A stretch of 64,000 nucleotides of DNA, from IMG/VR virus record IMGVR_UViG_3300043446_004500, positions 89,678 through 153,677 of that record, one strand, 5' to 3'. The notes below the pieces were generated by a model. The model was not told the origin of the DNA. It saw only the letters and a program-made list of their open reading frames with translations, and searched no databases. The stretch is from a virus. Below, one piece after another: positions 37,201-52,913 of this stretch; within the stretch, counting starts at the first letter, position 1; every line of letters begins with the position of its first letter. The position numbers and the translations under genes are program-made.

Positions 37201-37399
37201 TGGTGATTATCCAGTTTCTGTTACCATTACAAATGGAACATCAACCACATATCTTGCAAGAGACTTAATTATACCAAGATATTCAACTGTTGATATTTTA
37301 GATCGTCCAAAGAGAGTTGAACTTAATGGAACTATTGGTATTAAAGTTGGACAGACATCAACAATTGATGTGATTATTGCCGGTAAGCAAATTGTTTAG
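34283..37399 (+). CDS. Collagen-like fibre protein (two Gly-X-Y tracts, tandem C-terminal beta domains)
   Basis: Long GTQ/GSQ/GTT/GAT triplet tracts, each followed by GPVAGSANQVVYKD.SNNPAGS. Confidence 0.85.
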   Translation: MSYNVTVGYTPSLKVSREAAGLQGTQGTTGSQGIGGYIGADGSQGTQGTQGTQGTTGSQGAQGSQGTQGTTGSQGTQGTTGSQGTQGTTGSQGTQGTTGSQGTQGTQGTQGTTGSQGTQGTTGSQGTQGTTGSQGTQGTTGSQGTQGTTGSQGTQGTTGSQGIQGTTGTTGSQGIQGTTGTTGSQGIQGTTGTTGSQGIQGTTGSQGIQGTTGSQGIQGTTGTTGTTGSQGATGSQGSTGSQGTQGIYGPVAGSANQVVYKDGSNNPAGSGNLTFDGTNLYVAGNITVGGTSSYIISNQLNVADKDIVVGYTTNAFGVDVSTDTTANTGGIAVASTIGTPLVSFNSGGEITPDTYKQLMWFKAGTFTGLNTDAWAFNYALGIGTLQIPNGVRLAVGGMQVTDSTVSTPQLSISGLSTFGNTIKLNAGILDFYSNVGTAGSILISTGAGVSWTTPYAAGLQGVQGTQGLQGTQGTQGSTGSQGATGTQGATGSQGATGSQGTLGSQGATGTQGATGSQGATGSQGTLGSQGATGTQGATGSQGTLGSQGATGTQGATGSQGATGSQGTLGSQGTLGSQGTLGSQGATGSQGSTGSQGSTGAQGATGSQGSTGSQGTLGSQGATGSQGSTGSQGSTGAQGATGSQGSTGSQGTLGSQGTLGSQGSTGSQGTTGTQGTQGTQGTTGPVAGSANQVVYKDSSNNPAGSNNFTFNGTSVGIGTTNPTSKLYVVGDTYITGILTANRIISSLYGEFTGGSVSGSSIVGTSLSISGISTLGTVQISSGIVTATTGVVTYYGDGSKLSGISASAVVDGFNTGITSSVRILPLSYETTVFTFPSTAGKQYVIESINVANVDTSVGVGTTVNIIASIQDSTAEQTYIAYNVPVVNGGLIELLKNPMVAGPSDVIKMWATNSGYVGVNSSVEVYINYSEYTSTRYIRDYSSTVSIATTDLTTVYTSTTYPTTIQSIHLTNRTDIGDYPVSVTITNGTSTTYLARDLIIPRYSTVDILDRPKRVELNGTIGIKVGQTSTIDVIIAGKQIV
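34342..35020 (+). repeat. Collagen-coding tandem 9/27-nt repeats, tract 1
   Basis: Units such as GGATCTCAA GGAACACAA GGAACCACA. Confidence 0.9.
35654..36330 (+). repeat. Collagen-coding tandem repeats, tract 2
   Basis: Units GGTTCTCAA / GGTGCTACA / GGAACTTTA / GGAGCCACT. Confidence 0.9.
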
Positions 37400-37413: not shown

Positions 37414-37452
37414 ATGAGTATTCGTGAAGATGTATTTGGATTACCACAATAA
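37414..37452 (+). pseudogene. 12-codon remnant (MSIREDVFGLPQ) of a deleted Kelch-like repeat gene
   Basis: GAGGT SD. N-terminus resembles the RGIFxL leaders of the two propeller genes. 37438-37456 is identical to 42976-42994, the end of the 641-aa gene. Confidence 0.65.
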
Positions 37453-37477
37453 ATACCTCAAACACACATAAAACATT

Positions 37478-38131
37478 ATGAGTCTAATGATTGCTCTCCC
37501 TTGTCATGGGGGAATTGTGAGTGAAAAAACAACAATGAGTTTATTCAATCTAGGCAAACTTCTTGCTAGAAATAATATTTCTCACGGACTTTTAACACAG
37601 GCAAATTCTTCTTTAATTACAATTGGAAGATCTAAGTGTGTTAATTTTTTCTTGAATAATACAGAACACGAATATCTTCTTTTCTTAGACAGTGATATTG
37701 GTTTCAATCCAGAAGATGTATTAAAACTTTTATCTCATCAAGTTGATATTGTTTCTGGTGCTTATCCAATGAAAACGATACCTATTCGGTATTGCATTGA
37801 TATACTGCAACCAGAAGAACGAAAAGGTGATTTAATTAAAATTGGTGGAAATGGAATGGGATTTGTTCTTATTCATCGCAATGTGTTTTTGAATATATCA
37901 CAAAATTTTCCAGAACTTAAATACATTCCACCAACAAATGATAGCAATTATTCACCAACACAAGCAGAGTTAAATAATTCATATCATTATTTTATGGAGC
38001 ACAAAGAAAATAATTCCTTTATGAGTGAGGACAAAAGTTTCTTTTTCCGTGCTAAAATGTTAGGATATGATATATGGTTAGATACATCAATTAAATTGCA
38101 ACACATTGGTTCACATATTTTTACTGAGTAA
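37478..38131 (+). CDS. GT-A fold glycosyltransferase
   Basis: LMIALPC, YLLFLDSDI (DxD), VSGAYP, GMGFVLI.R, SEDKSF, IWLDTSIKLQHIG. Confidence 0.85.
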   Translation: MSLMIALPCHGGIVSEKTTMSLFNLGKLLARNNISHGLLTQANSSLITIGRSKCVNFFLNNTEHEYLLFLDSDIGFNPEDVLKLLSHQVDIVSGAYPMKTIPIRYCIDILQPEERKGDLIKIGGNGMGFVLIHRNVFLNISQNFPELKYIPPTNDSNYSPTQAELNNSYHYFMEHKENNSFMSEDKSFFFRAKMLGYDIWLDTSIKLQHIGSHIFTE

Positions 38132-38134
38132 CTT

Positions 38135-40537
38135 ATGAAATCTGGAGCAAGTGAAAGTTCTTATCATTACCTTTCACAACACTATGTAATTCCCGAAGAT
38201 GTAGAAGTATCACATCTTCCAGAAGTTCTTAAAAAATCAAATAAACCTTACAAGATTTTATGGGGTCAACACGCATATGACCAACCAGTCTTTGTAAATT
38301 TTAATCACAAAGATGTGACTCATATTGTTTCACCATCACATTGGGCAAAAGAGCAACTCATCAAGTATCATAATGTTCCAAAGAATAAAATTACTGTTAT
38401 TCCAACTGGAGTCAGTGATAGTTTTATCTTTAGTGAAAATAAAACAAAGACTTTTATTCATACTTCAATTCCTTATAAAGGTCTAGAACTTCTTCCTTCA
38501 ATTATTCGTCGTATTCATATAAAGCATCCCGATGCAAAGTTCAAAATCTTTTCATCAATGTCTTTGTATGGACCTTCTAATGACCCTTATATTGAATTGT
38601 ATGAAGAACTTAAGACTTTACCAAATGTAGAGTATTCTGCAGCAGTAGATCAAGAGGAACTTGTAAAGCACTATCAAGAATCAGCATTTTTTATTCATCC
38701 TAATATTTGGGAAGAGACCTTCTGTGTTTCAATGACCGAAGCAATGAAGTGTGGTGCATATCCAATTATTACAAACATTGGTGCATTGGAAGAAGTTGCT
38801 GGTGAAAACTTTGCATCTGTTGTACCGATTGATGGTAACAGGACATCAAAAGGATATGAGGTTACTGAGAACTTTCTAAATACATTTGCAGAGGTTTGTT
38901 GCACTGCTCTAGATTATTTTGAGGTAGATAGAACTTATTATAATCAAATCTCTAAATCACTTTCCAATCATATTTCACAAAAGTGTGATTGGAAAAAAGT
39001 TGCAAAACAATGGGAGAAACTCATCAATACTGTTTGTAGTCCTAATGTATTTTTTAGGGACAACAGTGTTGATAAGTCAATTTATGATGAAGTTTATATT
39101 CAAAATGTTTATGAAATTGAAACCCTAAATGAAGATGATGTTATTGTGGATATTGGTTCTCATTGTGGATATTTTTCCAAATTGTGTCTGGATAAAGGAA
39201 GTAAAAATGTAATTTCCTTTGAAGCAGATGAAAGTAACTACCAATGTTATCTAAAAAATCTATCCAAATATCAGGGATGGAAGTGTAACAATATTGCTGT
39301 TTGGAAAAGAACTTGCGATGAAGTTCCTTTTTACACTTATCCTCACAGTGAAAATACAGGACTTAACTCTTTTTACAAAAATCCTTATATGAATTCCTAT
39401 AAGGAAGTGAAAGTTAAAACAATTTCTTTAGATGATATTTTATCTTCTTATAATAAAATTAAACTATTGAAAATTGATGCTGAAGGAAGTGAATATGATA
39501 TTTTGATGAATTCAAAAGAAATTGAAAAAATTGAAAGTATTGTTGGAGAATATCATAATGATATGACCGACAAAACTATGGATGATTTGAAAACATATTT
39601 GACCAATAAAAACTTTATCATATATAAAACAGTTAAATTTAATCAAACTAGTGGATTATTTTTTGCAAAACACAAGTCTAAAATGAATGGAGAAACTATG
39701 ACTACTGAGAATACTGCATTGACTTATCAACCTATTTCAGCACAACAAGCAGTAATGGATGAAGATTATCTTCATAAGGCATTTCAAAATGTAATGAAGT
39801 GGGAAGAGAGTGATAAAGAACTTGCACAAGGCAGAACAAACTTCCAGTTAGAAAAGTTTGCTCTACTTGAAACTCATACACTTCCTGTTGCTTTTGAAAA
39901 TACACTGAAAGCACGAAGGCAAATGGCGGAAGGTTATATGTATAAACTCATTGAGATGAAAGAAAAGGTTCGTGAGTTTGAATACAAGTGGAAAGACCAA
40001 GATAGAACTCAACCAATCTTCTGGGAAGAAAGTGGTCCTGGTGGTGGTTCAAAGAAACTGCATTGGTTTGACCTGGATGAGCTATCACTCACACATTACC
40101 TAAAGTCTTGTGAACTTGAGATTCGTGACCGTCTTCATCAAATGGAGCACTTGGATAAAATTTTAGATAAACTAATGGAACAGAATGGTGGAAAACCAAT
40201 CACCAGAGAGCAATTCCTGGAAGGCGATGCTCTGTATTGGGAAAGAAGATTTGCAGACCAAGCAATGGATGAAATGATTGCTGCACAGACTGGTATTTCC
40301 ATTGGTAACCTTCACAGTATGCGTCGTGCTTCTGCACCTGCAATTGTTGATAAGAGAAATGAACTTCCAGAAGGTTATCTACCATTGAATAAAATGTTGG
40401 ATAGTCCACACGGTAAAATGGAATTCTTGAATGATTTGCAAAGAAAAGTTCTTACAGGTATTCAAGAAGTTACTGGTCAAAATTTGGGTATGATTACTGG
40501 TAGCCCTGAGGAGCAAAGAAAACTGGAAGGTAACTGA
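38135..40537 (+). CDS. Fusion: GT-B (GT4-like) glycosyltransferase + FkbM methyltransferase + uncharacterised helical domain
   Basis: HTSIPYKGL, EETFCVSMTEAMKCG (ExF..E); VDIGSHCG, LLKIDAEGSEYDIL; C-terminal helical domain from M at 39698. Confidence 0.8.
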   Translation: MKSGASESSYHYLSQHYVIPEDVEVSHLPEVLKKSNKPYKILWGQHAYDQPVFVNFNHKDVTHIVSPSHWAKEQLIKYHNVPKNKITVIPTGVSDSFIFSENKTKTFIHTSIPYKGLELLPSIIRRIHIKHPDAKFKIFSSMSLYGPSNDPYIELYEELKTLPNVEYSAAVDQEELVKHYQESAFFIHPNIWEETFCVSMTEAMKCGAYPIITNIGALEEVAGENFASVVPIDGNRTSKGYEVTENFLNTFAEVCCTALDYFEVDRTYYNQISKSLSNHISQKCDWKKVAKQWEKLINTVCSPNVFFRDNSVDKSIYDEVYIQNVYEIETLNEDDVIVDIGSHCGYFSKLCLDKGSKNVISFEADESNYQCYLKNLSKYQGWKCNNIAVWKRTCDEVPFYTYPHSENTGLNSFYKNPYMNSYKEVKVKTISLDDILSSYNKIKLLKIDAEGSEYDILMNSKEIEKIESIVGEYHNDMTDKTMDDLKTYLTNKNFIIYKTVKFNQTSGLFFAKHKSKMNGETMTTENTALTYQPISAQQAVMDEDYLHKAFQNVMKWEESDKELAQGRTNFQLEKFALLETHTLPVAFENTLKARRQMAEGYMYKLIEMKEKVREFEYKWKDQDRTQPIFWEESGPGGGSKKLHWFDLDELSLTHYLKSCELEIRDRLHQMEHLDKILDKLMEQNGGKPITREQFLEGDALYWERRFADQAMDEMIAAQTGISIGNLHSMRRASAPAIVDKRNELPEGYLPLNKMLDSPHGKMEFLNDLQRKVLTGIQEVTGQNLGMITGSPEEQRKLEGN

Positions 40538-40538
40538 G

Positions 40539-41072
40539 GTGAATCAAAAGTTTATGATTATTGATGACTTTTATGATATTGCTCATCAGTATCATCAAAG
40601 TTTCTTTAGTAAACAGTGTATGATAACTGAAGAGACGACTCAAAAACTTTCTTATATTTTGAGTCGTCCTTTGAAAATTGTAGAAGCATTTAATGAAGTT
40701 ACATTTGAGAATAATGAAAATCCAATCACTGCAAATACTGCTTGTGATTGGATTGCTGTAATTTATTTAACATTACCACCTAATTGTGTAATGAAAAAGG
40801 GATTGAGTTTTCATATTCATAAGAAAACAAGACTTGATAATTTTCCAAATGAGTATGCCTGCCAAATTAATGGTTGGCAGAATATGGATGATATTGTAAA
40901 GTCTTTTGATGTGGATAATGAGAATGAATGGGAAGAATATGCAAATGTGTTTGTAAAATATAATCGTTGTGTGTTATTCAAAGCAGATTATTGGCATTCT
41001 TATGGATATGGTTTTGGTAGTGAAATAAATAACTCAATGCTATACCAGAAGTTGTTAATAAAAAATGCCTAG
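40539..41072 (+). CDS. DUF6445-like (2OG-Fe(II) oxygenase-like) protein, HxD motif absent
   Basis: IIDDFY, WIAVIYL, YNRCVLF..WHS; paralog of 43010-43627. Confidence 0.65.
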   Translation: MNQKFMIIDDFYDIAHQYHQSFFSKQCMITEETTQKLSYILSRPLKIVEAFNEVTFENNENPITANTACDWIAVIYLTLPPNCVMKKGLSFHIHKKTRLDNFPNEYACQINGWQNMDDIVKSFDVDNENEWEEYANVFVKYNRCVLFKADYWHSYGYGFGSEINNSMLYQKLLIKNA

Positions 41073-42990
41073 TCCAAGGGGGATATTTCGACTTAAGCAA
41101 GTATATGAAGAGCAATTAAGTAATAATTGGTCAGTAAAAAGTGATGTATGGTTATCAACTCCTCAAGGAACCATAAACTTTGGATCTGGTGCAGTAGCAA
41201 CTCCACAGACTGGTTACTTTGGTGGAGGTAATCCTGGACCATATTCAACAGTAGATCGTATAGATTACTCCAATGATACAGCAACAGCAGTCGCAAAAGG
41301 ACCATTAAGTGTCGGTAGATATTTCTTAGCAGCAACAGGAAACAGTTCTTATGGTTACTTTGGTGGTGGTGCTACAGTATCAACAGTAGACCGTATAGAT
41401 TATGCTAATGATACTGCAACTGCATCACCAAAAGGACCATTGAGTCTTGCTAGATATGGTGTAGTAGCAACAGGTAACAGTTCTTATGGTTACTTTGGTG
41501 GTGGTAACGGACCCGTATCAACAGTAGACCGTATAGATTATGCTAATGATACTGCAACTGCATCACCTAAAGGACCATTGGGTCCTGCCAGAATAAGACC
41601 TGCAGCAACAGGTAATAGTTCTTATGGTTACTTTGGTGGTGGGTTTTTTCCTAGTCCAGGATCAAGAGTAGACCGTATTGATTACTCTAATGATACTGCA
41701 ACAGCATCACCAAAAGGACCATTGAGTCTTGCTAGATATGACTTAGCAGCAACAGGAAACAGTTCTTATGGTTACTTTGGTGGTGGTTATCCTACAGTAT
41801 CAAGAGTAGATCGTATTGATTACTCTAATGATACAGCAACAGCAGTCGCAAAAGGACCATTGAGTGCGGCAAAATATGGTCCAGGTGCAACAGGTAATAG
41901 TTCTTATGGTTACTTTGGTGGTGGTGCTCCTGGTACATATTCGACAGTAGACCGTATTGATTATGCTAATGATACTGCAACAGCATCACCTAAAGGTCCA
42001 TTGAGTGCTGCTAGAAGATATTTCGCAGCATCAAGTGCAAGAGCAAATGCACTTCCATCAACAAATACTACATTACCACCAGCAAATTTCCCAACTCAAA
42101 GTTATCCAGTCACATTCTATGGTTACTTTGGTGGTGGATATGTTTCTAGTTATGTATCAACAGTAGACCGTGTTGATTATGCTAATGATATTGCAACAGC
42201 ATCACCTAAAGGACCATTGAGTCTTGCTAGAGGATACTTAGCAGCAACAGGTAATAGTTCTTATGGATACTTTGGTGGTGGATATCTAGTATCAACAGTA
42301 GACCGTATAAATTATTCTAATGATACTGCAACAGCAGTCGCAAAAGGACCATTGAGTCTTGCTAGATATGGTTTAGCATCAACAGGAAACAGTTCTTATG
42401 GTTACTTTGGTGGTGGTTTTGCTCCTGGTGCAGTATCAACAGTAGATCGTATTGATTATGCTAATGATACAGCAACAGCAGTCGCAAAAGGACCATTGAG
42501 TGCTGCTAGACAATACTTAGCAGCAACAGGTAACAGTTCTTATGGATACTTTGGTGGTGGTGGTGGTGCTGGAGTATCAAGAGTAGATCGTATTGATTAC
42601 TCTAATGATACTGCTACTGCATCACCTAAAGGACCATTGAGTCTTGCTAGATTTGGTTTAATTGCAACAGGTAATAGTTCTTATGGATACTTTGGTGGTG
42701 GTAATCCTGGTCCAGTATCAAGAGTAGACCGTATTGATTATGCTAATGATACCGCAACTGCATCACCAAAAGGACCACTAAGTGCTGCTAGAAGATACTT
42801 AGCAGCAACAGGAAACAGTTCTTATGGTTACTTTGGTGGTGGTTTGAATCCTGGTGGTTATTTTTCAACAGTAGATCGTATTGATTACTCTAATGATACA
42901 GCAACAGCATCTGTAAAAGGACCATTAAGTGCTGCTAGAGGGTATTATCCAGCAGCAACCTCAGCAGCAGCAAACGGATTACCACAATAA
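41065..42990 (+). CDS. Kelch-like repeat protein, 2 x 6-blade propellers
   Basis: 12 repeats of about 47 aa: ATGNSSYGYFGGG-var-STVDRIDY(S/A)NDTATASPKGPLS.AR. Confidence 0.85.
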   Translation: MPSPRGIFRLKQVYEEQLSNNWSVKSDVWLSTPQGTINFGSGAVATPQTGYFGGGNPGPYSTVDRIDYSNDTATAVAKGPLSVGRYFLAATGNSSYGYFGGGATVSTVDRIDYANDTATASPKGPLSLARYGVVATGNSSYGYFGGGNGPVSTVDRIDYANDTATASPKGPLGPARIRPAATGNSSYGYFGGGFFPSPGSRVDRIDYSNDTATASPKGPLSLARYDLAATGNSSYGYFGGGYPTVSRVDRIDYSNDTATAVAKGPLSAAKYGPGATGNSSYGYFGGGAPGTYSTVDRIDYANDTATASPKGPLSAARRYFAASSARANALPSTNTTLPPANFPTQSYPVTFYGYFGGGYVSSYVSTVDRVDYANDIATASPKGPLSLARGYLAATGNSSYGYFGGGYLVSTVDRINYSNDTATAVAKGPLSLARYGLASTGNSSYGYFGGGFAPGAVSTVDRIDYANDTATAVAKGPLSAARQYLAATGNSSYGYFGGGGGAGVSRVDRIDYSNDTATASPKGPLSLARFGLIATGNSSYGYFGGGNPGPVSRVDRIDYANDTATASPKGPLSAARRYLAATGNSSYGYFGGGLNPGGYFSTVDRIDYSNDTATASVKGPLSAARGYYPAATSAAANGLPQ

Positions 42991-43009
42991 ATACTCAAAA
43001 ATCTTTATT

Positions 43010-43627
43010 ATGAAACAAAATATTATTGTTGTTGATGATTTTTATTCAAATCCACAAGAAGTTAGAGATTTTGCTTTAAAGGCAGAATATCCAGAACCAG
43101 AAGATAACTATACATATCCAGGAAGAAACTCAAACGATTCTTATTACTCACAAGATATTCATAAGTCTTTTGAGAATGTGGTCAAGGAACAACTTATTCC
43201 TGCAGATAAGAATGGATATTTTCGCATTTCATTAGCAACAGATTCTCATCGTCAAGATGTTCACGTAGATCCATCTTGGGAATGGGGTGCTGTAATTTAT
43301 ATGTCTTCACCAGAAGATTGTGTTGATGAGGGTGGTACATCATTCTGGAAACATAATGCTCTTCAAAGTGAAAATATTCCAAAAACCGATGAAGAAGCAC
43401 AGTTTTATGGATATCCAACTTATAAAGAATGTTGGTGGACAACTGTATATGGTGATGGTTTAGATCGTTCAAAGTGGACTCGTTACTTTCTGTGCCCGAT
43501 GAGATATAATAGATTAGTATTGTTTCGTACTCATTTATGGCATTCTCATAATTTTAATTTTGGGAACACTCTTGAAAACGGTAGATTAGTTCAGTTATTT
43601 TTCTTTAATCCAGTTAAGGAGTGGTAG
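43010..43627 (+). CDS. DUF6445-like 2OG-Fe(II) oxygenase
   Basis: IVVDDFYSNP, YPG.., HVD, GAVIYM, GGTSFW, YNRLVLF..WHS; start at ATG 43010 after ATAAATA. Confidence 0.75.
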   Translation: MKQNIIVVDDFYSNPQEVRDFALKAEYPEPEDNYTYPGRNSNDSYYSQDIHKSFENVVKEQLIPADKNGYFRISLATDSHRQDVHVDPSWEWGAVIYMSSPEDCVDEGGTSFWKHNALQSENIPKTDEEAQFYGYPTYKECWWTTVYGDGLDRSKWTRYFLCPMRYNRLVLFRTHLWHSHNFNFGNTLENGRLVQLFFFNPVKEW

Positions 43628-43628
43628 A

Positions 43629-44111
43629 ATGTATAGAGCATATTATGTTCCAAAATTTCCAGTTTCTTATATTACAGATGATGGAAGAGATTTATGGATT
43701 AATGATCCAAATCACATAAGACATCAATGTGGATTTCTTCAGGCAATTCTAGAACACATAGATAATACAAAACACATTGATCCAATAAAAATTGTTATTC
43801 CAGTTGAGGGGCAAGTTCAGGCAGGACCAGCAGGAACATCAAGACTTTATGCTCTTACACATTTGAGAGGTTATACACACGTTCCTGCAATTGTATCCAC
43901 TACACAATATTTTGAATGGTTTGGTGATGATGTTGTAGAAATTATTGATAAAGAGCAAATAAGGTCTTATCTTTTATTAGAACCAGCAGATTATAATATT
44001 GAACCAGATGGAAAAGCATTTTGGCATAATCATAATCCAAATGAAAAGCAAATGAGAGAAACATATAAAATTTCTCCAGAAACATTTGAAAAATTATTGA
44101 GATGTATATGA
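43629..44111 (+). CDS. ParB/sulfiredoxin-fold-like protein
   Basis: IDPIKIV...AGTSRLYAL...HVPAIV resembles the ParB/Srx P-I-x-V...GxxRxxA...VP pattern. Confidence 0.45.
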   Translation: MYRAYYVPKFPVSYITDDGRDLWINDPNHIRHQCGFLQAILEHIDNTKHIDPIKIVIPVEGQVQAGPAGTSRLYALTHLRGYTHVPAIVSTTQYFEWFGDDVVEIIDKEQIRSYLLLEPADYNIEPDGKAFWHNHNPNEKQMRETYKISPETFEKLLRCI

Positions 44112-44938
44112 ATAAGACTTATCATTTTATGGCGGGACTTCCACGATCAGGAAGCACACTACTCAAAAGTATTTTAGATCAAAATCCTAATATTCACGCA
44201 AATCCAGTAAGTCCTGTGATGGAATTGATGTATCATACTGAAGAATATTTGAAAAAAAGTGAGCAATATCTAGGATATCCAAAACCAAAAAGTGCCTATA
44301 AAATTATTAGTAGTTATATTGATAATTATTATTTTGACCGTGAAGAACCAGTTATTATAGATCATTGTCGTGCCTGGACAAATAATATAGAAAGAATTAA
44401 AACTTATATTACACCAAATCCAAAAATCATTTGTCCTGTAAGAGATATTGTTGAAATTCTTACATCTTTTATTACAATGGTTCATCGTAATGATGATCAA
44501 GTTTCATTTATAGATCAACATTTGATAGAAAAAGGTGTTACTGTAGATGATGATAATCGTTGTCAGTATTTAATGAGTGATGATGGAATCGTAGAACAAG
44601 CACTATGGGCACAAGGACAGGCATTTATTAAAAATGATACTCGTCATTTATTAATGATTGAATATAATGATTTGGTGAATACTCCAGATGAAACAATGAA
44701 AAGAATTTATGATTTCTTAGAGATGGATTATTACAATCATAACTTTAGTAATGTTGAAAATAATCATCGTGAGAATGATGACCAGTGGTATTTAAAAGAT
44801 ATGCACTATGTGAGAAAGGAAGTTAAAAAAATATCTAAAAAACCAGAAGATGTATTATCACCCTATATTTTAAATAAATATAAAAAACTGGAATACTGGA
44901 AGTATCCCGAGAGTCCTTATTTAATAAATGGCAACTAA
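44102..44938 (+). CDS. Sulfotransferase
   Basis: 5'-PSB GLPRSGSTLL, 3'-PB CPVRD...S, IEYNDLV.TP..TMKRIYDFL. Confidence 0.88.
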   Translation: MYMNKTYHFMAGLPRSGSTLLKSILDQNPNIHANPVSPVMELMYHTEEYLKKSEQYLGYPKPKSAYKIISSYIDNYYFDREEPVIIDHCRAWTNNIERIKTYITPNPKIICPVRDIVEILTSFITMVHRNDDQVSFIDQHLIEKGVTVDDDNRCQYLMSDDGIVEQALWAQGQAFIKNDTRHLLMIEYNDLVNTPDETMKRIYDFLEMDYYNHNFSNVENNHRENDDQWYLKDMHYVRKEVKKISKKPEDVLSPYILNKYKKLEYWKYPESPYLINGN

Positions 44939-47900
44939 TACAAGAGGAATATTTGCACTTTTAGATGTAAGAGAAAGACAAAACACAGGATATTGGCCTG
45001 TAAAGAGTGGTGTATGGTTAAGTCCAAGCCCTTATTATGGTCCTGCTCCAGATGTTGGTTACTTTGGTGGTGCTCAACCTGCAAATTCAACAGTAGACCG
45101 TGTTGATTACTCTAATGATACTGCAACAGCATCAGTAAGAGGTCCATTAAGTCTTGCTAGAGGATATCTAGCAGCAACAGGTAGTAATTCTTATGGTTAC
45201 TTTGGTGGTGGATGGACTCCTGGTTCAGTATCAACAGTAGACCGTATCAATTACTCTAATGATACTGCAACAGCATCACCTAAAGGACCATTGAGTCTTG
45301 CTAGATATGGTTTAGTAGCAACAGGTAGTAATTCGTATGGTTACTTTGGTGGTGGTCGTGCCGATTATTCGACAGTAGACCGTATTGATTACTCTAATGA
45401 TACTGCAACAGCATCACCTAAAGGACCATTGAGTGCTGCTAGAGGATACTTAGCAGCAACAGGTAACAGTTCTTATGGTTACTTTGGTGGTGGTCTTACA
45501 GTATCAAGAGTAGATCGTATTGATTACTCTAATGATACTGCTACTGCATCACCTAAAGGACCATTGAGTATTGCTAGATATGCTTTAGCAGCAACAGGTA
45601 ACAGTTCTTATGGTTATTTTGGTGGTGGTACTCCTGCAAGATCAACAGTAGATCGTATTGATTATGCTAATGATACAGCAACAGCAGTCGCAAAAGGACC
45701 ATTGAGTGCTATTAGATATCGTTTAGCAGCAACAGGTAATAGTTCTTTTGGTTACTTTGGTGGTGGTTTTGCTTCATCAACAGTAGATCGTATTGATTAC
45801 TCCAATGATACCGCAACAGCAGTTGCAAAAGGACCATTAAGTTCTGCTAGATATTACTTAGCAGCATCAAGTCCTAAAGCAAATGCAATCACAAATTCAG
45901 TGCTTTTGCCCTCATCAGGAGGAACCATAAACTTTGGAACTGGTACAGTAGCAACTCCAAATACTGGTTACTTTGGTGGTGGTACTCCTGGTCCAATATC
46001 AACAGTAGATCGTATAGATTACTCTAACGACACAGCAACAGCAGTCGCAAAAGGTCCATTAATTCTTGCTAGACTTTACTTAGCAGCAACAGGTAATGGT
46101 TCTTATGGATACTTTGGTGGTGGTAACGGGCCCGTATCAACAGTAGATCGTATTAATTACTCCAATGATACTACAACTGCATCACCTAAGGGTCCATTAA
46201 GTGCTGGTAGATATTGGCTTGCTGCAACAGGTAATAATTCTTATGGTTATTTTGCAGCAGGTAGGCCGACTGGAGTATCAACAGTAGATCGTATAGATTA
46301 CTCTAATGATACTGCAACTGCATCACCAAAGGGACCATTAAATTCTGGAAAATTAGCATTAACTGCGACCGGAAATCAATCTTATGGTTACTTTGGTGGT
46401 GGATATGCTTCCATATCAACAGTAGACCGTATTGATTATGCTAATGATACAGCAACAGCATCACCAAAAGGTCTATTAAGTGTTGGTAAAGGTATGTTTG
46501 CTGCAACAGGTAATAGTTCTTATGGTTACTTTGGTGGAGGAAATTATTCAACACCAAATTCTTCTGTAGACCGTATTGATTACTCTAATGATACAGCAAC
46601 AGCATCACCAAAGGGACCATTAAGTGCTGGTAGAGGTGGTTTATCTGCAACAGGAACTAGTTCTTATGGATACTTTGGTGGAGGTAATGGTCCAGTATCA
46701 AGAGTAGATCGTATTGATTACTCTAATGATACTGCAACAGCATCACCTAAAGGACCATTGAGTGCTGCTAGAACATATCTTGCATCATCAAGTGCAAGAG
46801 CAAATGGATTTTCACCAGTGGTTAACACTACATTACCACCAGCAAACACAATATTCCAAAAGTTTCCAGTATTTTTCTATGGGTACTTTATTGGAGGTGC
46901 TCCTGGTCCATTATCAACAATAGATCGAATTGATTATACAAATGATACAATAACAGCATCTCCAAGAGGAACATTATCAGCTGGAAGAGCTGGTGGTGCT
47001 GGAACTGGTAGTAGTTCTTATGGTTATTTTGGTGGAGGTGCTGTTTCATCTGTTAGTAGAATTGATTACTCTAATGATTCATTATTACCATCACCAGGAC
47101 TCAATCTATTATCAAGAGGTCCATTAAATGTTAGTAGGCAATATTTTGGTGCAGCAGGAAATTATAATTATGGTTGGTTTGGTGGAGGATCACCATCAAT
47201 TACTACAGTAGATCGTATTGATTATGCTAATGATACTGCAACAGCATCACCAAAAGGAAATTTAACTTCGGTTACTTTAGGTAATGCAGCAACAGGAAAT
47301 AAAGATTATGGATATTGGGCAGGAGGATATAGTCCTTCTTATAATCAACTAGTAGACCGTATTGATTATGCTAATGATACTGCAACAGCACCATCAAGAA
47401 CAGCATTATCTTCTGCAAGAGGATTATTCTCTGCAACAGGAAACAAAGATTATGGTTACTTTGGTGGAGGATATAATCCTGCTGCAATATCCACAGTAGA
47501 TCGTTTAGATTATGCAAATGATACTGTCTTTTTAGTATCAAAAGGACCATTGAGTGCTGCAAGATATGGTTTAGCGGCAACAGGAAACACAACTAATGGT
47601 TACTTTGGTGGTGGTGCTCCTGGTACATATTCGACAGTAGACCGTATTGATTACTCTAATGATACTGCTACTGCATCACCTAAAGGACCATTGAGTCTTG
47701 CTAGATATTATTTTGGAGCAAATACATCAATTATTAATCTTCTTGATTATGCTTCTTATACTCCTTCTTCAGCACCAGCAACACCACCACCTACAAGTGC
47801 TTACTTTGGTGGTGGTAATGATGATACAAAAGCACTTCAAAGCATTGAAAGAATTGATTATGCAAATGATACTGCAACGGCAACTAATGATTCTTGTTTG

Positions 47901-49595
47901 ACTGTTGGAACTCAGTACTTAGCAGCAACAGGTAATAGTTCTTATGGTTACTTTGGTGGTGGTGTTCCATCATCATCAAGAGTAGACCGTATTGATTATT
48001 CAAGTAATACCGTATCAACATCAACTAAAGGACCATTAAGTCTTGCTAGAGGATACTTAGCAGCAACAGGTAACAGTTCTTATGGTTACTTTGGTGGTGG
48101 TTATCCTGGTATATATTCAACAGTAGACCGTATTGATTATGCTAATGATACTGCAACTGCATCACCTAAAGGACCATTAAGTGCTGGTAGATATGACTTA
48201 GCAGCAACAGGTAATGAAAGTTATGGATACTTTGGTGGTGGTCCTAACACTCCTTCTACAATTGTATCTCGTCAAAAAATTGATAAAATTGATTATTCAA
48301 ATGATACTGCAACAGCAGTTTGGAAATCTGCATTTGGAAACTTGAAATATCAACATTCTGCAACAGGAAATAAAAATTATGGTTACTTTGGTGGAGGTGT
48401 TTCTCCATATTCAACCAAGGTAGAAAGACTTGATTATGCAAGTGATATGCTCTGGGCAACTACAAGATCTAGTTTGTCTCCTGCATTTTCAACATATAGT
48501 GCGGCAACTGGTAGTTCTTCATTTGGATACTGGAGTGGTAAATATCCTGCAATTTCAACAGTAGATCGTTTAGATTATTCTAGTGATACTACGAATACAG
48601 TTACTAAAGGACCATTAAATACAAAAAGAGGACTTCATGCAGGGTGTAGTCCTGTTGCAAATGGTATTGGTCTCACACCAGTTCCAGTTCCTGCTGCACC
48701 AGGAGCACCAGTTCCTACAAGTGGTTATTTTGGTGGTGGTTTTTCGTATTATCCTGGCGGTTCACTCAAGATTGAAAGAATTGATTATTCAAATGATACT
48801 GCAACATCATCCTGGAGAGCATCATTAAATAACCTAAGATATTACTTAGCAGCAACAGGTAATAGTTCTTATGGTTACTTTGGTGCTGGTGGTGCTCCTG
48901 GTGTTCCAACAATATCAACAGTAGAACGTATTGATTATTCTACAGATTATCAAATTGCACTTACTAAAGGACCATTAAGTCTTGCTAGAGGATACTTAGC
49001 AGCAACAGGTAACAGTTCTTATGGTTATTTTGGTGGTGGGTGGCCTGGTCCATATTCAACAGTAGACCGTATTGATTATGCTAATGATACTGCAACAGCA
49101 TCGCCTAAAGGACCATTGAGTCTTGCTAGATATGGTGTAGTAGCAACAGGTAACAGTTCTTATGGTTACTTTGGTGGTGGTTATGCTCCTGGTCCAAGAT
49201 CAACAGTAGATCGTATTGATTATGCTAATGATACTGCAACAGCATCACCTAAAGGACCATTAAGTGCCGCAAAATATTTCTTAGCAGCAACAGGAAATAG
49301 TTCTTATGGTTACTTTGGTGGTGGTGCTCCTAGTCCATATTCAACAGTAGACCGTATTGATTATGCTAATGATACTGCAACAGCATCACCTAAAGGACCA
49401 TTGAGTCTTGCTAGATATGGTGTAGTAGCAACAGGTAACAGTTCTTATGGATACTTTGGTGGTGGTTATTCTGCTTATTCAAGAGTAGACCGTATTGATT
49501 ACTCTAATGATACTGCAACAGCATCACCTAAAGGACCACTAAGTGAAGCAAGTTATTATCTTTCTGCTTGTAGTCCTGTTGCTAACGGTCTATAA
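44928..49595 (+). CDS. Kelch-like repeat protein, 5 x 6-blade propellers
   Basis: 30 repeats of the same unit in five groups of six, separated by Pro-rich linkers. Confidence 0.85.
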   Translation: MATNTRGIFALLDVRERQNTGYWPVKSGVWLSPSPYYGPAPDVGYFGGAQPANSTVDRVDYSNDTATASVRGPLSLARGYLAATGSNSYGYFGGGWTPGSVSTVDRINYSNDTATASPKGPLSLARYGLVATGSNSYGYFGGGRADYSTVDRIDYSNDTATASPKGPLSAARGYLAATGNSSYGYFGGGLTVSRVDRIDYSNDTATASPKGPLSIARYALAATGNSSYGYFGGGTPARSTVDRIDYANDTATAVAKGPLSAIRYRLAATGNSSFGYFGGGFASSTVDRIDYSNDTATAVAKGPLSSARYYLAASSPKANAITNSVLLPSSGGTINFGTGTVATPNTGYFGGGTPGPISTVDRIDYSNDTATAVAKGPLILARLYLAATGNGSYGYFGGGNGPVSTVDRINYSNDTTTASPKGPLSAGRYWLAATGNNSYGYFAAGRPTGVSTVDRIDYSNDTATASPKGPLNSGKLALTATGNQSYGYFGGGYASISTVDRIDYANDTATASPKGLLSVGKGMFAATGNSSYGYFGGGNYSTPNSSVDRIDYSNDTATASPKGPLSAGRGGLSATGTSSYGYFGGGNGPVSRVDRIDYSNDTATASPKGPLSAARTYLASSSARANGFSPVVNTTLPPANTIFQKFPVFFYGYFIGGAPGPLSTIDRIDYTNDTITASPRGTLSAGRAGGAGTGSSSYGYFGGGAVSSVSRIDYSNDSLLPSPGLNLLSRGPLNVSRQYFGAAGNYNYGWFGGGSPSITTVDRIDYANDTATASPKGNLTSVTLGNAATGNKDYGYWAGGYSPSYNQLVDRIDYANDTATAPSRTALSSARGLFSATGNKDYGYFGGGYNPAAISTVDRLDYANDTVFLVSKGPLSAARYGLAATGNTTNGYFGGGAPGTYSTVDRIDYSNDTATASPKGPLSLARYYFGANTSIINLLDYASYTPSSAPATPPPTSAYFGGGNDDTKALQSIERIDYANDTATATNDSCLTVGTQYLAATGNSSYGYFGGGVPSSSRVDRIDYSSNTVSTSTKGPLSLARGYLAATGNSSYGYFGGGYPGIYSTVDRIDYANDTATASPKGPLSAGRYDLAATGNESYGYFGGGPNTPSTIVSRQKIDKIDYSNDTATAVWKSAFGNLKYQHSATGNKNYGYFGGGVSPYSTKVERLDYASDMLWATTRSSLSPAFSTYSAATGSSSFGYWSGKYPAISTVDRLDYSSDTTNTVTKGPLNTKRGLHAGCSPVANGIGLTPVPVPAAPGAPVPTSGYFGGGFSYYPGGSLKIERIDYSNDTATSSWRASLNNLRYYLAATGNSSYGYFGAGGAPGVPTISTVERIDYSTDYQIALTKGPLSLARGYLAATGNSSYGYFGGGWPGPYSTVDRIDYANDTATASPKGPLSLARYGVVATGNSSYGYFGGGYAPGPRSTVDRIDYANDTATASPKGPLSAAKYFLAATGNSSYGYFGGGAPSPYSTVDRIDYANDTATASPKGPLSLARYGVVATGNSSYGYFGGGYSAYSRVDRIDYSNDTATASPKGPLSEASYYLSACSPVANGL

Positions 49596-49598
49596 ATA
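49591..49598 (+). promoter_or_regulatory. Late promoter TATAAATA
   Basis: Exact consensus overlapping the stop codon of the propeller gene. Confidence 0.7.
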
Positions 49599-49616
49599 CT
49601 CAAAACAACTTAGATT

Positions 49617-50279
49617 ATGATTGATAATCCTCTTTCTTATGTTCTCATTCGCCCTAATGTTATCAATCCAGAAGGTCTTCAAGAACTTATAACTCATATC
49701 AAATCTTCACCTGCAGAAGACCTTTCTGTTTTTGATCCAGATAAAACAAATGCAACTGGACAAACATCTTGGATTGTTGATAAGGAAACCAGAGATACTC
49801 AAATTGTTGCTATGGGTAATCTCTATCCAAAGATTGAAGACCTACTGAGAAATGCAGTCAAACATATCATTAATCCTTTCTATCAATGTGAAGTAGATAG
49901 TAGTGAAATACCACAAGTTCTTTCTTATGGTATTGGAGGTCATTATCGTCCTCATATTGATGGAGAAAGCATTTGGGTAACTCCTAGAGGTGAAAAGATT
50001 TGGAAAAAAAGTACAAATAGAGATTTATCTATTGTTTTTTTCTTGAATAATGATTTTGAAGGTGGTGATTTTGTGTTTCCAGATTTAAAAGTAAGAGTAA
50101 GACCAGAACCAGGAATGATGGTATGTTTTCCATCTAATCATCATTATATGCACGGAGTTGAATCAGTCACCAAAGGAAAAAGATATTCAATTGTAACTTG
50201 GGCAACTGTAAAAGGATTTCCATCAATGAATGAGGTTAATCAACAACTTTCACAGGAGTATGGAGTTCCTGTAATATAA
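49617..50279 (+). CDS. Prolyl-4-hydroxylase-like 2OG-Fe(II) oxygenase
   Basis: Y..GGHYRPHID, LSIVFFLNNDFEGG, HGVESVTKGKRYSIVTW. Confidence 0.88.
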   Translation: MIDNPLSYVLIRPNVINPEGLQELITHIKSSPAEDLSVFDPDKTNATGQTSWIVDKETRDTQIVAMGNLYPKIEDLLRNAVKHIINPFYQCEVDSSEIPQVLSYGIGGHYRPHIDGESIWVTPRGEKIWKKSTNRDLSIVFFLNNDFEGGDFVFPDLKVRVRPEPGMMVCFPSNHHYMHGVESVTKGKRYSIVTWATVKGFPSMNEVNQQLSQEYGVPVI

Positions 50280-50765: not shown

Positions 50766-52913
50766 ATGTCTAATAATAGAGAACTTTCTCAGTTTGGTTC
50801 TTTTGTTAATGTTAATGATAATACAACAAACATAGGAATTGCTACTGGTAGTTCTCTAGTTGGTATTGGAACTACATTTCCAACATCAAAATTGGATGTT
50901 ATTGGCGATGTAAAAATATCTGGAGTAACAACTGCATCCGTTTTTAGTGGTAGTGGAATATTATTAACAGATCTACCAAATACAACATTTTTATTCAATT
51001 CAACAGGAATACATACAACATCAAATGTTGGAATTGGAACTACAACAGCATCTTCAACATTAACAGTTCAAGGAAATGCTCTTGTAACAGGAATAGTAAC
51101 TGCTTCATCTTTTTTTGGAAATGGTGCAGGATTAACTGATGTTTTTAGTAGAGTATCAATTTCTTCTGAAGGCACAGTTGTAGGTTCTGCGATTACATCC
51201 TTAGACTATAGAGGTCCTGGAATTTCTTCTATTGTAGCTTCTTCTGGAATAGCAACTATAACGTTTGTTTCAGTTCAAGGAACAACAGGAACTCAAGGTA
51301 CTACAGGAACTCAAGGTGCTACTGGTACTCAAGGTGCTACTGGTACTCAAGGTGCTACTGGTACTCAAGGTATTCAAGGTCGCCAAGGCACTACAGGTAC
51401 TCAAGGTGCTACTGGTACTCAAGGATCTAATGGTGTTCAAGGATCAACGGGTTCTGGTGCTCAAGGTACTACAGGTACTCAAGGTGCATCAGGTACTCAG
51501 GGTGCATCAGGTGCTCAAGGTGCATCAGGAACTTCAGTTCAAGGATCTGCAGGAGCAAGTGTTCAAGGTACTACAGGTACTCAAGGTGCATCAGGTACTC
51601 AAGGCACTACAGGAACTCAAGGTGCATCAGGAACTTCAGTTCAAGGATCTGCAGGAGCAAGTGTTCAAGGAACTACAGGAACTCAGGGTGTCACAGGAAC
51701 TTCAGTTCAAGGGACTACAGGAGCTCAGGGTGCTACAGGAACTCAAGGTACAATAGGAACTTCAGTTCAAGGAACTACAGGAACTCAAGGTGCATCAGGT
51801 ACTCAAGGCACTACAGGAACTCAAGGTGCATCAGGAACTTCAGTTCAAGGTGCCACAGGAACTCAGGGTACTACAGGATCAGGTACTCAAGGTTCTACTG
51901 GTACTCAAGGTGCTACAGGAACTCAAGGTATTCAAGGTCGTCAAGGAACTACAGGTTCTCAAGGAACTACAGGTTCTCAAGGAACTACAGGTACTCAAGG
52001 AACAATAGGAACTCAAGGATTTCAAGGACCACAAGGTGCTACAGGAACACAAGGTGCTACAGGAACTCAAGGAACAACAGGTACTCAAGGTTCTTCAGGG
52101 CCAGGAACAACAATTAACGCAACATCAACAACAACAGATGCATCTTTTTATCCAGTATTTGTTTCTACAATTGGTTCTGCTACAACCGCAAGAGCAGAAA
52201 GTGGATTTATAATAAATCCGGGAGCAAACACTTTTACAATATCTTCCGGAAAACTTGTTGTAGATAGAACTGATAATCCATCTTTAGGAACTTACTTTGA
52301 AGTCACTTCTCCTATTGGAACCAGATTTTCCGTGGTAGAAGGTAATTCGGGATCATCAACACCCTCCGAGGCACTGTCACTTAAACTAGGCGCTAATAGA
52401 AGTTATATATCTGTCGATAAATCTTTTGTCCCTTATGTAGATAATAGCCTTTCATTAGGCGGATCCGGTAGTCTTAATTCCGTAGCATACAATCTTAGAT
52501 GGACTGCAGTTTGGGCAGTTAACGGGACTATTCAAACATCAGACCAAAGAGAAAAAACAAATATTAATACTTCAGATCTTGGATTAAACTTTATAGAAAA
52601 ACTTAATCCAGTATCATATAAATGGATTGTTGGTAAAAATGAAATTGATAAAGATGATATTAATATTATAACTCCAATTCCAGGAAAAAGACTTCATTAT
52701 GGATTATTGGCACAAGAAGTCAAACAGGCATATGAAGAGTGTGGTGCTGCTGATTTTGGTGGTTGGATTTTAACAGATGCAGAGGATCCAGATAGTTCTC
52801 AAGGTTTAAGATATGACCAGTTCATTGCTCCATTGATTAAAGCAGTTCAAGAACAACAGGAGATGATTAATTCACTTAAGCAAGAAATTGAAAATTTGAA
52901 GTCTCAAATATGA
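50766..52913 (+). CDS. Collagen-like tail fibre with C-terminal S74 intramolecular chaperone
   Basis: VGIGTT repeats, Gly-X-Y tract, TSDQREKTNI...LNPVSYKW..HYGLLAQEV..LRYDQFIAPLIKAVQE. Confidence 0.85.
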   Translation: MSNNRELSQFGSFVNVNDNTTNIGIATGSSLVGIGTTFPTSKLDVIGDVKISGVTTASVFSGSGILLTDLPNTTFLFNSTGIHTTSNVGIGTTTASSTLTVQGNALVTGIVTASSFFGNGAGLTDVFSRVSISSEGTVVGSAITSLDYRGPGISSIVASSGIATITFVSVQGTTGTQGTTGTQGATGTQGATGTQGATGTQGIQGRQGTTGTQGATGTQGSNGVQGSTGSGAQGTTGTQGASGTQGASGAQGASGTSVQGSAGASVQGTTGTQGASGTQGTTGTQGASGTSVQGSAGASVQGTTGTQGVTGTSVQGTTGAQGATGTQGTIGTSVQGTTGTQGASGTQGTTGTQGASGTSVQGATGTQGTTGSGTQGSTGTQGATGTQGIQGRQGTTGSQGTTGSQGTTGTQGTIGTQGFQGPQGATGTQGATGTQGTTGTQGSSGPGTTINATSTTTDASFYPVFVSTIGSATTARAESGFIINPGANTFTISSGKLVVDRTDNPSLGTYFEVTSPIGTRFSVVEGNSGSSTPSEALSLKLGANRSYISVDKSFVPYVDNSLSLGGSGSLNSVAYNLRWTAVWAVNGTIQTSDQREKTNINTSDLGLNFIEKLNPVSYKWIVGKNEIDKDDINIITPIPGKRLHYGLLAQEVKQAYEECGAADFGGWILTDAEDPDSSQGLRYDQFIAPLIKAVQEQQEMINSLKQEIENLKSQI
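51278..52100 (+). repeat. Collagen-coding tandem repeats with GTSVQ interruptions
   Basis: GGTACTCAA/GGTGCTACT/GGAACTACA units. Confidence 0.88.

Follow-up and report, generated by a model that had tools for sequence, protein, structure and literature searches.

We analysed a window of 64,000 nucleotides (nt) of viral DNA, the last 64 kb of the IMG/VR record IMGVR_UViG_3300043446_004500 (153,677 bp, estimated to be 73% complete). Two genes of this window, here called gene A (41065-42990, plus strand; 641 amino acids, aa) and gene B (44928-49595, plus strand; 1555 aa), are intact open reading frames (ORFs) that encode arrays of short repeats. Profile matches and a structural model indicate that each protein is made of a leader and a string of six-bladed Kelch propellers, two in gene A and five in gene B, and that the two variable segments of every blade lie on a single propeller face. 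The arrays carry the marks of recombination between blades, and this recombination is slow, occurring on an evolutionary time scale and not per infection. The explanation that we favor, and consider probable, is that the propeller proteins are host-binding parts, with loops that ordinary recombination exchanges from time to time; the receptor-binding role is what we infer for them.

When the DRIDY motif was used as an anchor, 12 repeats were counted in gene A and 30 in gene B, each of them 45-52 aa long (135-156 nt), and a blade hidden Markov model gave the same count. Consecutive repeats are spaced by 44-52 aa within a group of six and by 66-74 aa between groups, which divides the arrays into two plus five modules. 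In gene A, the N-terminal leader (aa 1-49) precedes module 1 (41212-42051) and module 2 (42121-42975); the five modules of gene B, all on the plus strand, are found at 45057-45887, 45966-46808, 46881-47741, 47799-48665 and 48723-49589. ORFs, motif spacing and the blade model thus agree with the 42 blades in groups of six that a previous sequence-only reading of this DNA had described. The same reading considered the blades near-identical, a view that did not survive closer inspection: Tandem Repeats Finder detects periods of 138-144 nt with 75-86% matches, the pairwise nucleotide identity of the framework among window blades has a mean of 79% (median 81%, best pairs 97-98%), the proportion of differing synonymous sites (pS) in the framework is 0.29-0.35, and the longest exact tract common to any two blades is 75 nt. 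Around 12 blades of gene B, in modules 3 and 4 and at the start of module 5, are strongly diverged.

Amino acid entropy was examined in an alignment of the 42 blades. Values are highest behind GYFGGG, in alignment columns 7-17, where they reach 3.2 bits, a second peak comprises the three to four residues that follow GPLSxAR (columns 46-52, 1.9-2.5 bits), and the majority of framework columns remain below 1 bit. The same columns top the entropy profile of 1144 blades from related contigs, in support of the two hypervariable sites initially proposed. The variable loops are rich in Tyr, Pro and Gly. Variants of loop 1 and loop 2 assort independently, and identical loop segments recur in different blades; a 25-mer quoted in the sequence-only reading as an example of such recurrence lies inside a 58-nt exact match (41906-41963 = 47596-47653).

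The assignment of the repeats to the Kelch superfamily is based on sequence profiles and on a predicted fold. Built from 141 single modules, a profile matched SAKe6FR, a designed Kelch protein, along the whole module (E 2e-9) as well as the Kelch domain of KLHL12 (E 9e-6); the repeat alignment is in register with the KLHL12 repeats, and the units, whose length lies in the range of about 44-56 residues typical of Kelch repeats, read YGYFGGG ... VDRIDY ... GPLSxAR. An AlphaFold2 (AF2) model of a single module (module 1 of gene A, with the module alignment as input) reached a predicted local distance difference test score (pLDDT) of 94.9 and a predicted template modeling score (pTM) of 0.93. Foldseek superimposed this model on the six-bladed Kelch propellers of KEAP1 and SAKe with template modeling (TM) scores of 0.83-0.84, a root-mean-square deviation of about 2 Å and E values around 1e-17. 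In the viral structure library BFVD, a homologue from the cultured Synechococcus phage S-SKS1 ranks first and is followed by phage Kelch proteins, several of which, including proteins of jumbo phages, are annotated as virion structural proteins. The initial identification of the repeats as Kelch blades is therefore backed both by profile matches to solved Kelch domains and by the model.

Secondary structure assignment (DSSP) on the module model places each conserved and each variable segment along the blade. Strand B (YGYFG), strand C (VDRID), a short strand D and strand A (AATG) are conserved, and so are the C-D connection (YSNDTATA) and the A-B turn (NSS). Variability is concentrated in the B-C loop, made of GG plus variable loop 1, and at the end of the D-A connection, where variable loop 2 follows KGPLSxxR. 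The topology of a four-stranded antiparallel blade is such that the connections B-C and D-A exit on one face and those between A and B and between C and D on the opposite one. The ligand pocket of KEAP1 is built from D-A and B-C loops (PMC12314335). Because the variable segments are precisely these connections, the model puts both of them on one face, the canonical ligand face of Kelch propellers, and leaves the opposite face nearly invariant. The proposal that both segments map to one propeller face is thus supported by strand order in the module model together with Kelch topology.

Signs of exchange between blades are of two kinds. One kind is provided by exact tracts of 58-75 nt, all on the plus strand, that cover a variable loop with its adjoining framework and end at the next loop. 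The longest (75 nt; 41431-41505 = 49107-49181) matches a third site as well over 59 nt (49392-49450), and brings the loop-2 variant YGVV into three blades. The 58-nt tract mentioned above carries the loop-1 variant APGTY and links both genes, and a 65-nt tract (48024-48088 = 48963-49027) is common to blades B-m4b2 and B-m5b2. The other kind of sign is mosaicism. In several window blades, one third is 100% identical to a paralogous blade and the remainder is closest to the orthologue, taking the orthologues of L013_12203, a propeller gene of a related phage, as outside reference. Blade B-m3b6, for instance, is paralog-like in its 5' two thirds and ortholog-like in its 3' third, and blades B-m4b2 and B-m5b2 retain ortholog-like 5' parts. 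Maximum chi-square analysis detected breakpoints in B-m3b6 (p = 0.001), B-m4b2 (0.0002), B-m5b2 (0.0002) and B-m5b3 (about 0.01), p-values that are optimistic because these blades were chosen for testing after scanning 18 blades. As judged from exact tracts and breakpoints, short-tract gene conversion between blades is real, and this part of the shuffling originally envisaged stands; the idea of an "ongoing" repertoire does not, as stable arrays and orthologous blades speak against it (see below).

Residues that are fixed in nearly all blades of one protein and differ between lineages were also detected: the residue preceding GPL is K or R, GYFGGG varies between Y and W, and the next blade is preceded by SSY or SNF. 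Such a distribution is the mark of concerted evolution. Homogenization of whole modules was considered and rejected since modules do not group by genome in the module tree, in which most of them form an unresolved star.

The tempo of recombination was assessed by comparison with relatives. The orthologues of gene B modules 3-5 are modules 2-4 of L013_12203 (module tree supports 100, 100 and 91), and the correspondence holds blade for blade: the diverged blades keep their odd framework residues and also their loops. The flanking genes of the two phages have a pS of 0.6-0.7. At the population level, eight contigs from as many metagenome datasets carry the 24-blade array of L013 without a single difference (100.000% identity) over up to 3804 nt, and a 30-blade array differs between three datasets by a single 6-nt deletion only. 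In one of the eight contigs, a block of about 700 nt further downstream is about 10% divergent and the array is identical. Such a block, located 3' of the propeller locus, separates two relatives that are otherwise near-identical (L015:7875-8578 compared with L022:5923-6626) and is a local recombination import. A metagenome scan for near-identical strains of the window phage yielded none above 74% identity; hence, the stability test rests on relatives.

The above observations bear on two further explanations. One is a programmed, high-frequency diversity generator that reshuffles blades or loops quickly within a population, in the manner of a lamprey variable lymphocyte receptor (VLR), of vlsE, or of a diversity-generating retroelement (DGR). 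Recurrence of identical loop segments, independent assortment of the two loops and framework DNA similar enough for homologous recombination are what one would expect under such a mechanism. However, no RVT_1 domain was found in the 153.7-kb record (73% complete), in agreement with the initial statement that no reverse transcriptase is involved. Silent donor cassettes were not found either: all five matches within the own genome fall inside genes A and B, which are the only two complete genes, and the sole extra copy is a remnant of 12 codons. In addition, the longest exact repeat is 75 nt, orthologous blades have kept their loops between phages with a flanking-gene pS of 0.6-0.7, and the array of a relative shows zero differences across eight datasets. 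The system is neither a DGR nor a cassette-based repertoire, and we regard such a programmed or high-frequency diversity generator as very improbable. The analogy with VLRs and transcription activator-like effectors (TALEs) drawn in the sequence-only reading is not supported, on the same grounds; that reading had named identical arrays across related phages as an observation that would speak against fast turnover, and the 24-blade array of L013 is such a case.

The other explanation is that the arrays are an assembly artefact, with mis-joined or chimeric repeats. The contig is metagenome-derived, and short-read assemblies are known to break up at repeat proteins (PMC9238414). Nonetheless, both ORFs are intact, blade counts are exact multiples of six, exact repeats do not exceed 75 nt, the same architectures appear in many independent assemblies, and the array of the relative is reproduced base for base in eight of them. 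An artefact is thus hardly credible. Both the DGR and the artefact were rejected.

Stability within populations coexists with turnover between phages. The locus can be described as a frame with three slots, in the order collagen-like fibre, slot 1, cassette X, slot 2, cassette Y, slot 3, 2-oxoglutarate (2OG) oxygenase. Relatives differ in the number of blades per slot, in slot occupancy and even in the order of cassettes X and Y, and complete genes contain 12, 18, 24, 30 or 36 blades. Remnants were also detected. In the window, slot 1 holds what is left of a third propeller gene, a stretch of 12 codons after the collagen-like fibre gene (37415-37453, plus strand; MSIREDVFGLPQ and a stop codon). 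This remnant has its own ribosome-binding site, and its leader start, identical to that of L007_3039, meets the 3' end that it has in common with gene A at a GGATTA microhomology; in relatives, the same slot is occupied by a full propeller gene. A second case is a one-blade pseudogene in slot 2 of another relative (L006:1562-1870, frame 3), which combines a gene-A-like leader, a degenerate blade with an internal stop and a conserved C-terminal end. Judging from these sequences, the range of blade numbers and the remnants are the product of unequal recombination.

Selection was examined as the ratio of non-synonymous to synonymous differences per site (pN/pS). Among the paralogous blades of the window, pN/pS is 0.30-0.47 in the framework and 1.2-1.3 in the loops; in 18 orthologous blade pairs, the values are 0.27 and 0.88. 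Non-synonymous change is three to four times faster in the loops. These figures are relevant to the possibility that the propellers are a purely structural or decorative repeat (a fibre shaft, a whisker, or a decoration of the capsid or the tail), with unconstrained loops, passive mosaicism and no role in host recognition. Loop values of about 0.9-1.3 are near neutrality, selection is stronger on the conserved face, and Kelch virion proteins of jumbo phages have no known receptor role, all of which would fit decoration. On the other hand, the variable residues occupy the canonical Kelch ligand face, the composition of the loops is not random, and the number of modules and genes turns over quickly between syntenic phages, as is typical of host-range determinants. 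We consider decoration unlikely, albeit a serious contender.

Synonymous sites show a peculiar pattern. Certain framework positions use codons that depart from the codon usage of the genome: CGT and AGA are found at two Arg positions, TAC and TAT at two Tyr positions, and AGT, TCA and TCT at Ser positions, and GTA, GCA, CCA and GGT are almost fixed. The sequence-only reading had claimed that the framework is nearly identical even at synonymous positions. The position-specific codons are real, but with a nucleotide identity of 79% and a pS of 0.29-0.35 near-identity is not. Furthermore, the codon pattern is common to the whole family in other phages, and therefore offers no evidence of recent homogenization in the window genome. 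When window blades are compared with all blades of other genomes (L006-L013), framework pS is 0.34-0.41 and does not rise with genome divergence; in the flanking genes, pS over the same genome pairs rises to 0.6-0.74. A low framework pS admits more than one explanation: synonymous constraint, recent exchange of propeller genes between phages and biased conversion to a consensus are all possible.

The mechanism that we propose for a host-binding role can be summarized as follows. The conserved leader of about 45 aa would act as a virion-attachment domain and is followed by the string of two (gene A) or five (gene B) Kelch propellers. One face of every blade, with GNSS in its A-B turn and DYSNDTATA as its C-D connection, is nearly invariant. 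The opposite face, which varies in sequence and in length at the B-C loop and at the end of the D-A connection, would bind a ligand on the host surface, a function attributed to it because Kelch domains of the KEAP1 type bind their ligands there. Conversion of short tracts (about 45-75 nt) copies a loop plus adjoining framework between blades, both within and between the two genes; unequal recombination alters the number of modules and collapses or deletes whole genes; and lineage-specific substitutions spread across all blades. Within a population the arrays remain stable, and several modules keep their orthology between phages.

Several observations weigh against this explanation or against its foundations. 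Regarding the fold, no Kelch family was detected by Pfam at E <= 0.01 in either protein, and precomputed Kelch matches are scattered among a few homologues; the AF2 model of the whole 641-aa protein, built with 32 full-length homologues, had a pLDDT of 36 and did not give the arrangement of the propellers; and the placement of the variable segments on one face derives from strand order and known Kelch topology, not from measured geometry. Regarding recombination, the optimism of the breakpoint p-values has been indicated above, and the pairwise homoplasy index (PHI) gave no significant, distance-dependent signal within blades (p 0.07-0.99). The latter result is explained by site incompatibility, which affects about 70% of the pairs whatever their distance, and neither supports nor excludes conversion. 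Ordinary recombination alone leaves the low synonymous divergence of the framework across genomes unexplained. Regarding function, a loop pN/pS of about 0.9-1.3 is as compatible with relaxed constraint as with diversifying selection, and the S-SKS1 homologues are annotated as hypothetical proteins.

Both proteins belong to a phage family that has not been characterized (PHROG 19111, function unknown; E 4.3e-138, 462 bits for gene A) and that, from the sequence comparisons above, appears to evolve by ordinary recombination. The family contains at least 1251 proteins in the length range searched, and 56 viral plus 79 metagenome loci were found. Megablast and tblastn searches against cultured phages matched only S-SKS1 and one single-cell virus, and no description of the family or of tandem Kelch-propeller arrays in phages was found in the literature searched.

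Resemblance to known systems is nevertheless apparent at several levels. With the Kelch propellers of KEAP1, KLHL12/KLHL20 and SAKe, the proteins share six four-stranded blades, variable B-C/D-A loops on the ligand face, and a repeat of 45-50 aa in which a GG doublet follows strand B, strand C holds an aromatic residue and a conserved Arg precedes strand A. In contrast with cellular Kelch proteins, they have two to six propellers in tandem per chain and lack a BTB/BACK partner, their blades are far more alike, and the face opposite to the ligand face (GNSS, DYSNDTATA) is nearly invariant. Kelch proteins are also known in the virions of large phages: CBB_552 of Pectobacterium phage CBB was detected in the particle by mass spectrometry (PMC5259590). 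CBB_552 and the phiKZ-like structural proteins are, like ours, Kelch propellers of myoviruses, and they are matched structurally in BFVD; however, they are single propellers with 14-19% identity to those described here, and they show no tandem arrays, concerted evolution or enzyme cassettes.

The gp38 adhesins of T2/T6-type phages possess an attachment domain, a Gly-rich core and hypervariable segments that are "easily interchanged" (PMC3157838). By inspection, the propeller proteins are alike in having an N-terminal leader and conserved Gly-rich motifs between hypervariable segments, and they occur in the same phage superfamily, so that an analogy of architecture, possibly of function, can be drawn. 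Pfam and PHROGs gave no signal of homology to gp38. The latter sits at the tip as a small monomer and has four variable segments, compared with 24 and 60 on two and five propellers in the present case. As for the DGR of Bordetella phage BPP-1 (Mtd), the VLRs and Borrelia vlsE, the resemblance lies in variable residues set on a constant scaffold and in copying of short segments. The differences are that reverse transcriptase, template repeat and silent cassettes are missing here, that arrays are stable in populations, and that change is evolutionary; moreover, unlike the outcome of DGR mutagenesis, variation among blades includes changes in length and affects all codon positions.

The interest of the family is manifold. 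Host recognition by the abundant T4-like phages of aquatic environments is poorly understood beyond T4-type fibres, and this family is always found in the fibre region, with differences in gene number, module number and loops between syntenic phages, as one would expect of host-range determinants. As a natural and highly regular Kelch scaffold, in which every propeller offers 12 variable segments, the arrays can be compared with the designed symmetric Kelch proteins, and they are a clean case of concerted evolution in a virus. They also illustrate that a pattern resembling the repertoires of adaptive immunity can come from ordinary recombination, without dedicated machinery.

Additional information comes from the genomic context. 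The window contains genes for a T4-type baseplate hub, a tube cap and tail proteins, as well as several very large fibre genes (PHROG matches). The closest cultured relatives according to one tail protein are Synechococcus phages B3 and B23 (52% amino acid identity), and other cyanomyoviruses rank behind them for the same protein (about 32%). The source is an uncultured T4-like myovirus, and genes A and B are probably paralogous late structural genes of its tail-fibre region. The locus opens with a collagen-like tail-fibre gene (34283-37399, plus strand; PHROG tail-fibre families, Pfam Collagen). Directly 3' of gene B lies a 2OG-Fe(II) oxygenase gene (49617-50279, plus strand; Pfam 2OG-FeII_Oxy_3, E 4.5e-16), which synteny shows to be kept behind the last propeller gene in relatives, and these two genes flank the locus in dozens of contigs. 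A further collagen-like fibre gene (50766-52913) also encodes an S74 chaperone domain (Pfam Collagen and Peptidase_S74).

Two enzyme cassettes, delimited by Pfam matches and synteny and encoded on the plus strand, are intercalated with the propeller genes. Cassette X (37478-41072), upstream of gene A, contains orf217, then the gene of a protein in which a GT1 glycosyltransferase is joined to an FkbM methyltransferase (38135-40537), and finally orf177 (40539-41072). Cassette Y (42929-44938), between genes A and B, contains a DUF6445 protein (42929-43627), orf160 and a sulfotransferase (44102-44938). BLASTP (29% identity, E 8e-16) showed orf177 to be a paralogue, in truncated form, of the DUF6445 protein, which means that a DUF6445-like gene is present in the enzyme cassette upstream of each propeller gene of the window; the pairing is kept in relatives. 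DUF6445-like genes are possibly cupin/2OG-oxygenase-like. We also noticed that each blade has two N-x-S/T motifs on its invariant face, of which one (SNDT) belongs to the C-D connection and the other (GNSS) to the A-B turn (84 motifs altogether), and their vicinity to glycosyltransferase, hydroxylase-like and sulfotransferase genes makes them candidate modification sites.

This tight and conserved interleaving of propeller genes with DUF6445-like, sulfotransferase, glycosyltransferase/methyltransferase and 2OG oxygenase genes raises the question of whether the propellers are virion parts at all. They might be intracellular or secreted Kelch proteins, either adaptors or similar to enzymes of the galactose oxidase class, or else serve the tailoring enzymes primarily as substrates or scaffolds, with some other purpose; in eukaryotes and poxviruses, Kelch domains do serve as substrate adaptors. 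Against this interpretation, strand and location are common with tail-fibre and baseplate genes, the N-terminal leader is conserved between paralogs as is typical of attachment domains, and Pfam found no catalytic or BTB-type partner domain. We deem a role outside the virion improbable.

If host-binding virion parts are assumed, as we prefer, the neighboring enzymes may have a different meaning. According to a prediction by Iyer et al. (2010; PMC2938197), the products of dioxygenase-sulfotransferase operons act in succession, by hydroxylation and then sulfation, on collagen-like or tail-collar proteins encoded alongside them. The present locus is alike in its combination of dioxygenase-like, sulfotransferase and methyltransferase/glycosyltransferase genes with collagen-like fibre genes, and differs in that the non-enzymatic partners are Kelch propeller arrays. 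A hydroxylate-then-sulfate scheme may act here, by analogy, on the fibres or on the invariant face of the propellers. The propellers are thus a candidate substrate of dioxygenases and sulfotransferases, whose genes are a puzzling feature of the structural regions of cyanophages. An attractive but doubtful speculation goes further and views the locus as a self-contained, recombination-shuffled adhesin system, with up to three multi-propeller slots between portable tailoring cassettes. The enzymes (DUF6445-like hydroxylases, sulfotransferase, glycosyltransferase/methyltransferase and 2OG oxygenase) would modify the invariant face at NDT and NSS, and the conserved synonymous sites would keep blades competent for recombination, both within a phage and between co-infecting phages. 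If true, binding faces would be recombined combinatorially across the whole phage gene pool.

Finally, a shared junction was observed past the stops of gene A, gene B and the remnant. It reads ATAAATAC(C)TCAAA and is followed, after about 10-20 nt, by the TTATG of the next gene; its copies span 37446-37482, 42985-43012 and 49591-49619 of the window. At gene B, the junction reads TATAAATA, which is the T4 late-promoter consensus. It may serve as a portable late promoter, or else mark a boundary of recombination. In the window, TATAAATA is not in excess (5 copies, with 7.3 expected by chance); copies stand at the stop codons of both gene B and the 2OG oxygenase gene. At the end of gene A, the listed ORF of the DUF6445 gene has a GTG start and overlaps gene A by 62 nt (42929-42990); the real start is probably the ATG at 43010, just past the conserved junction.

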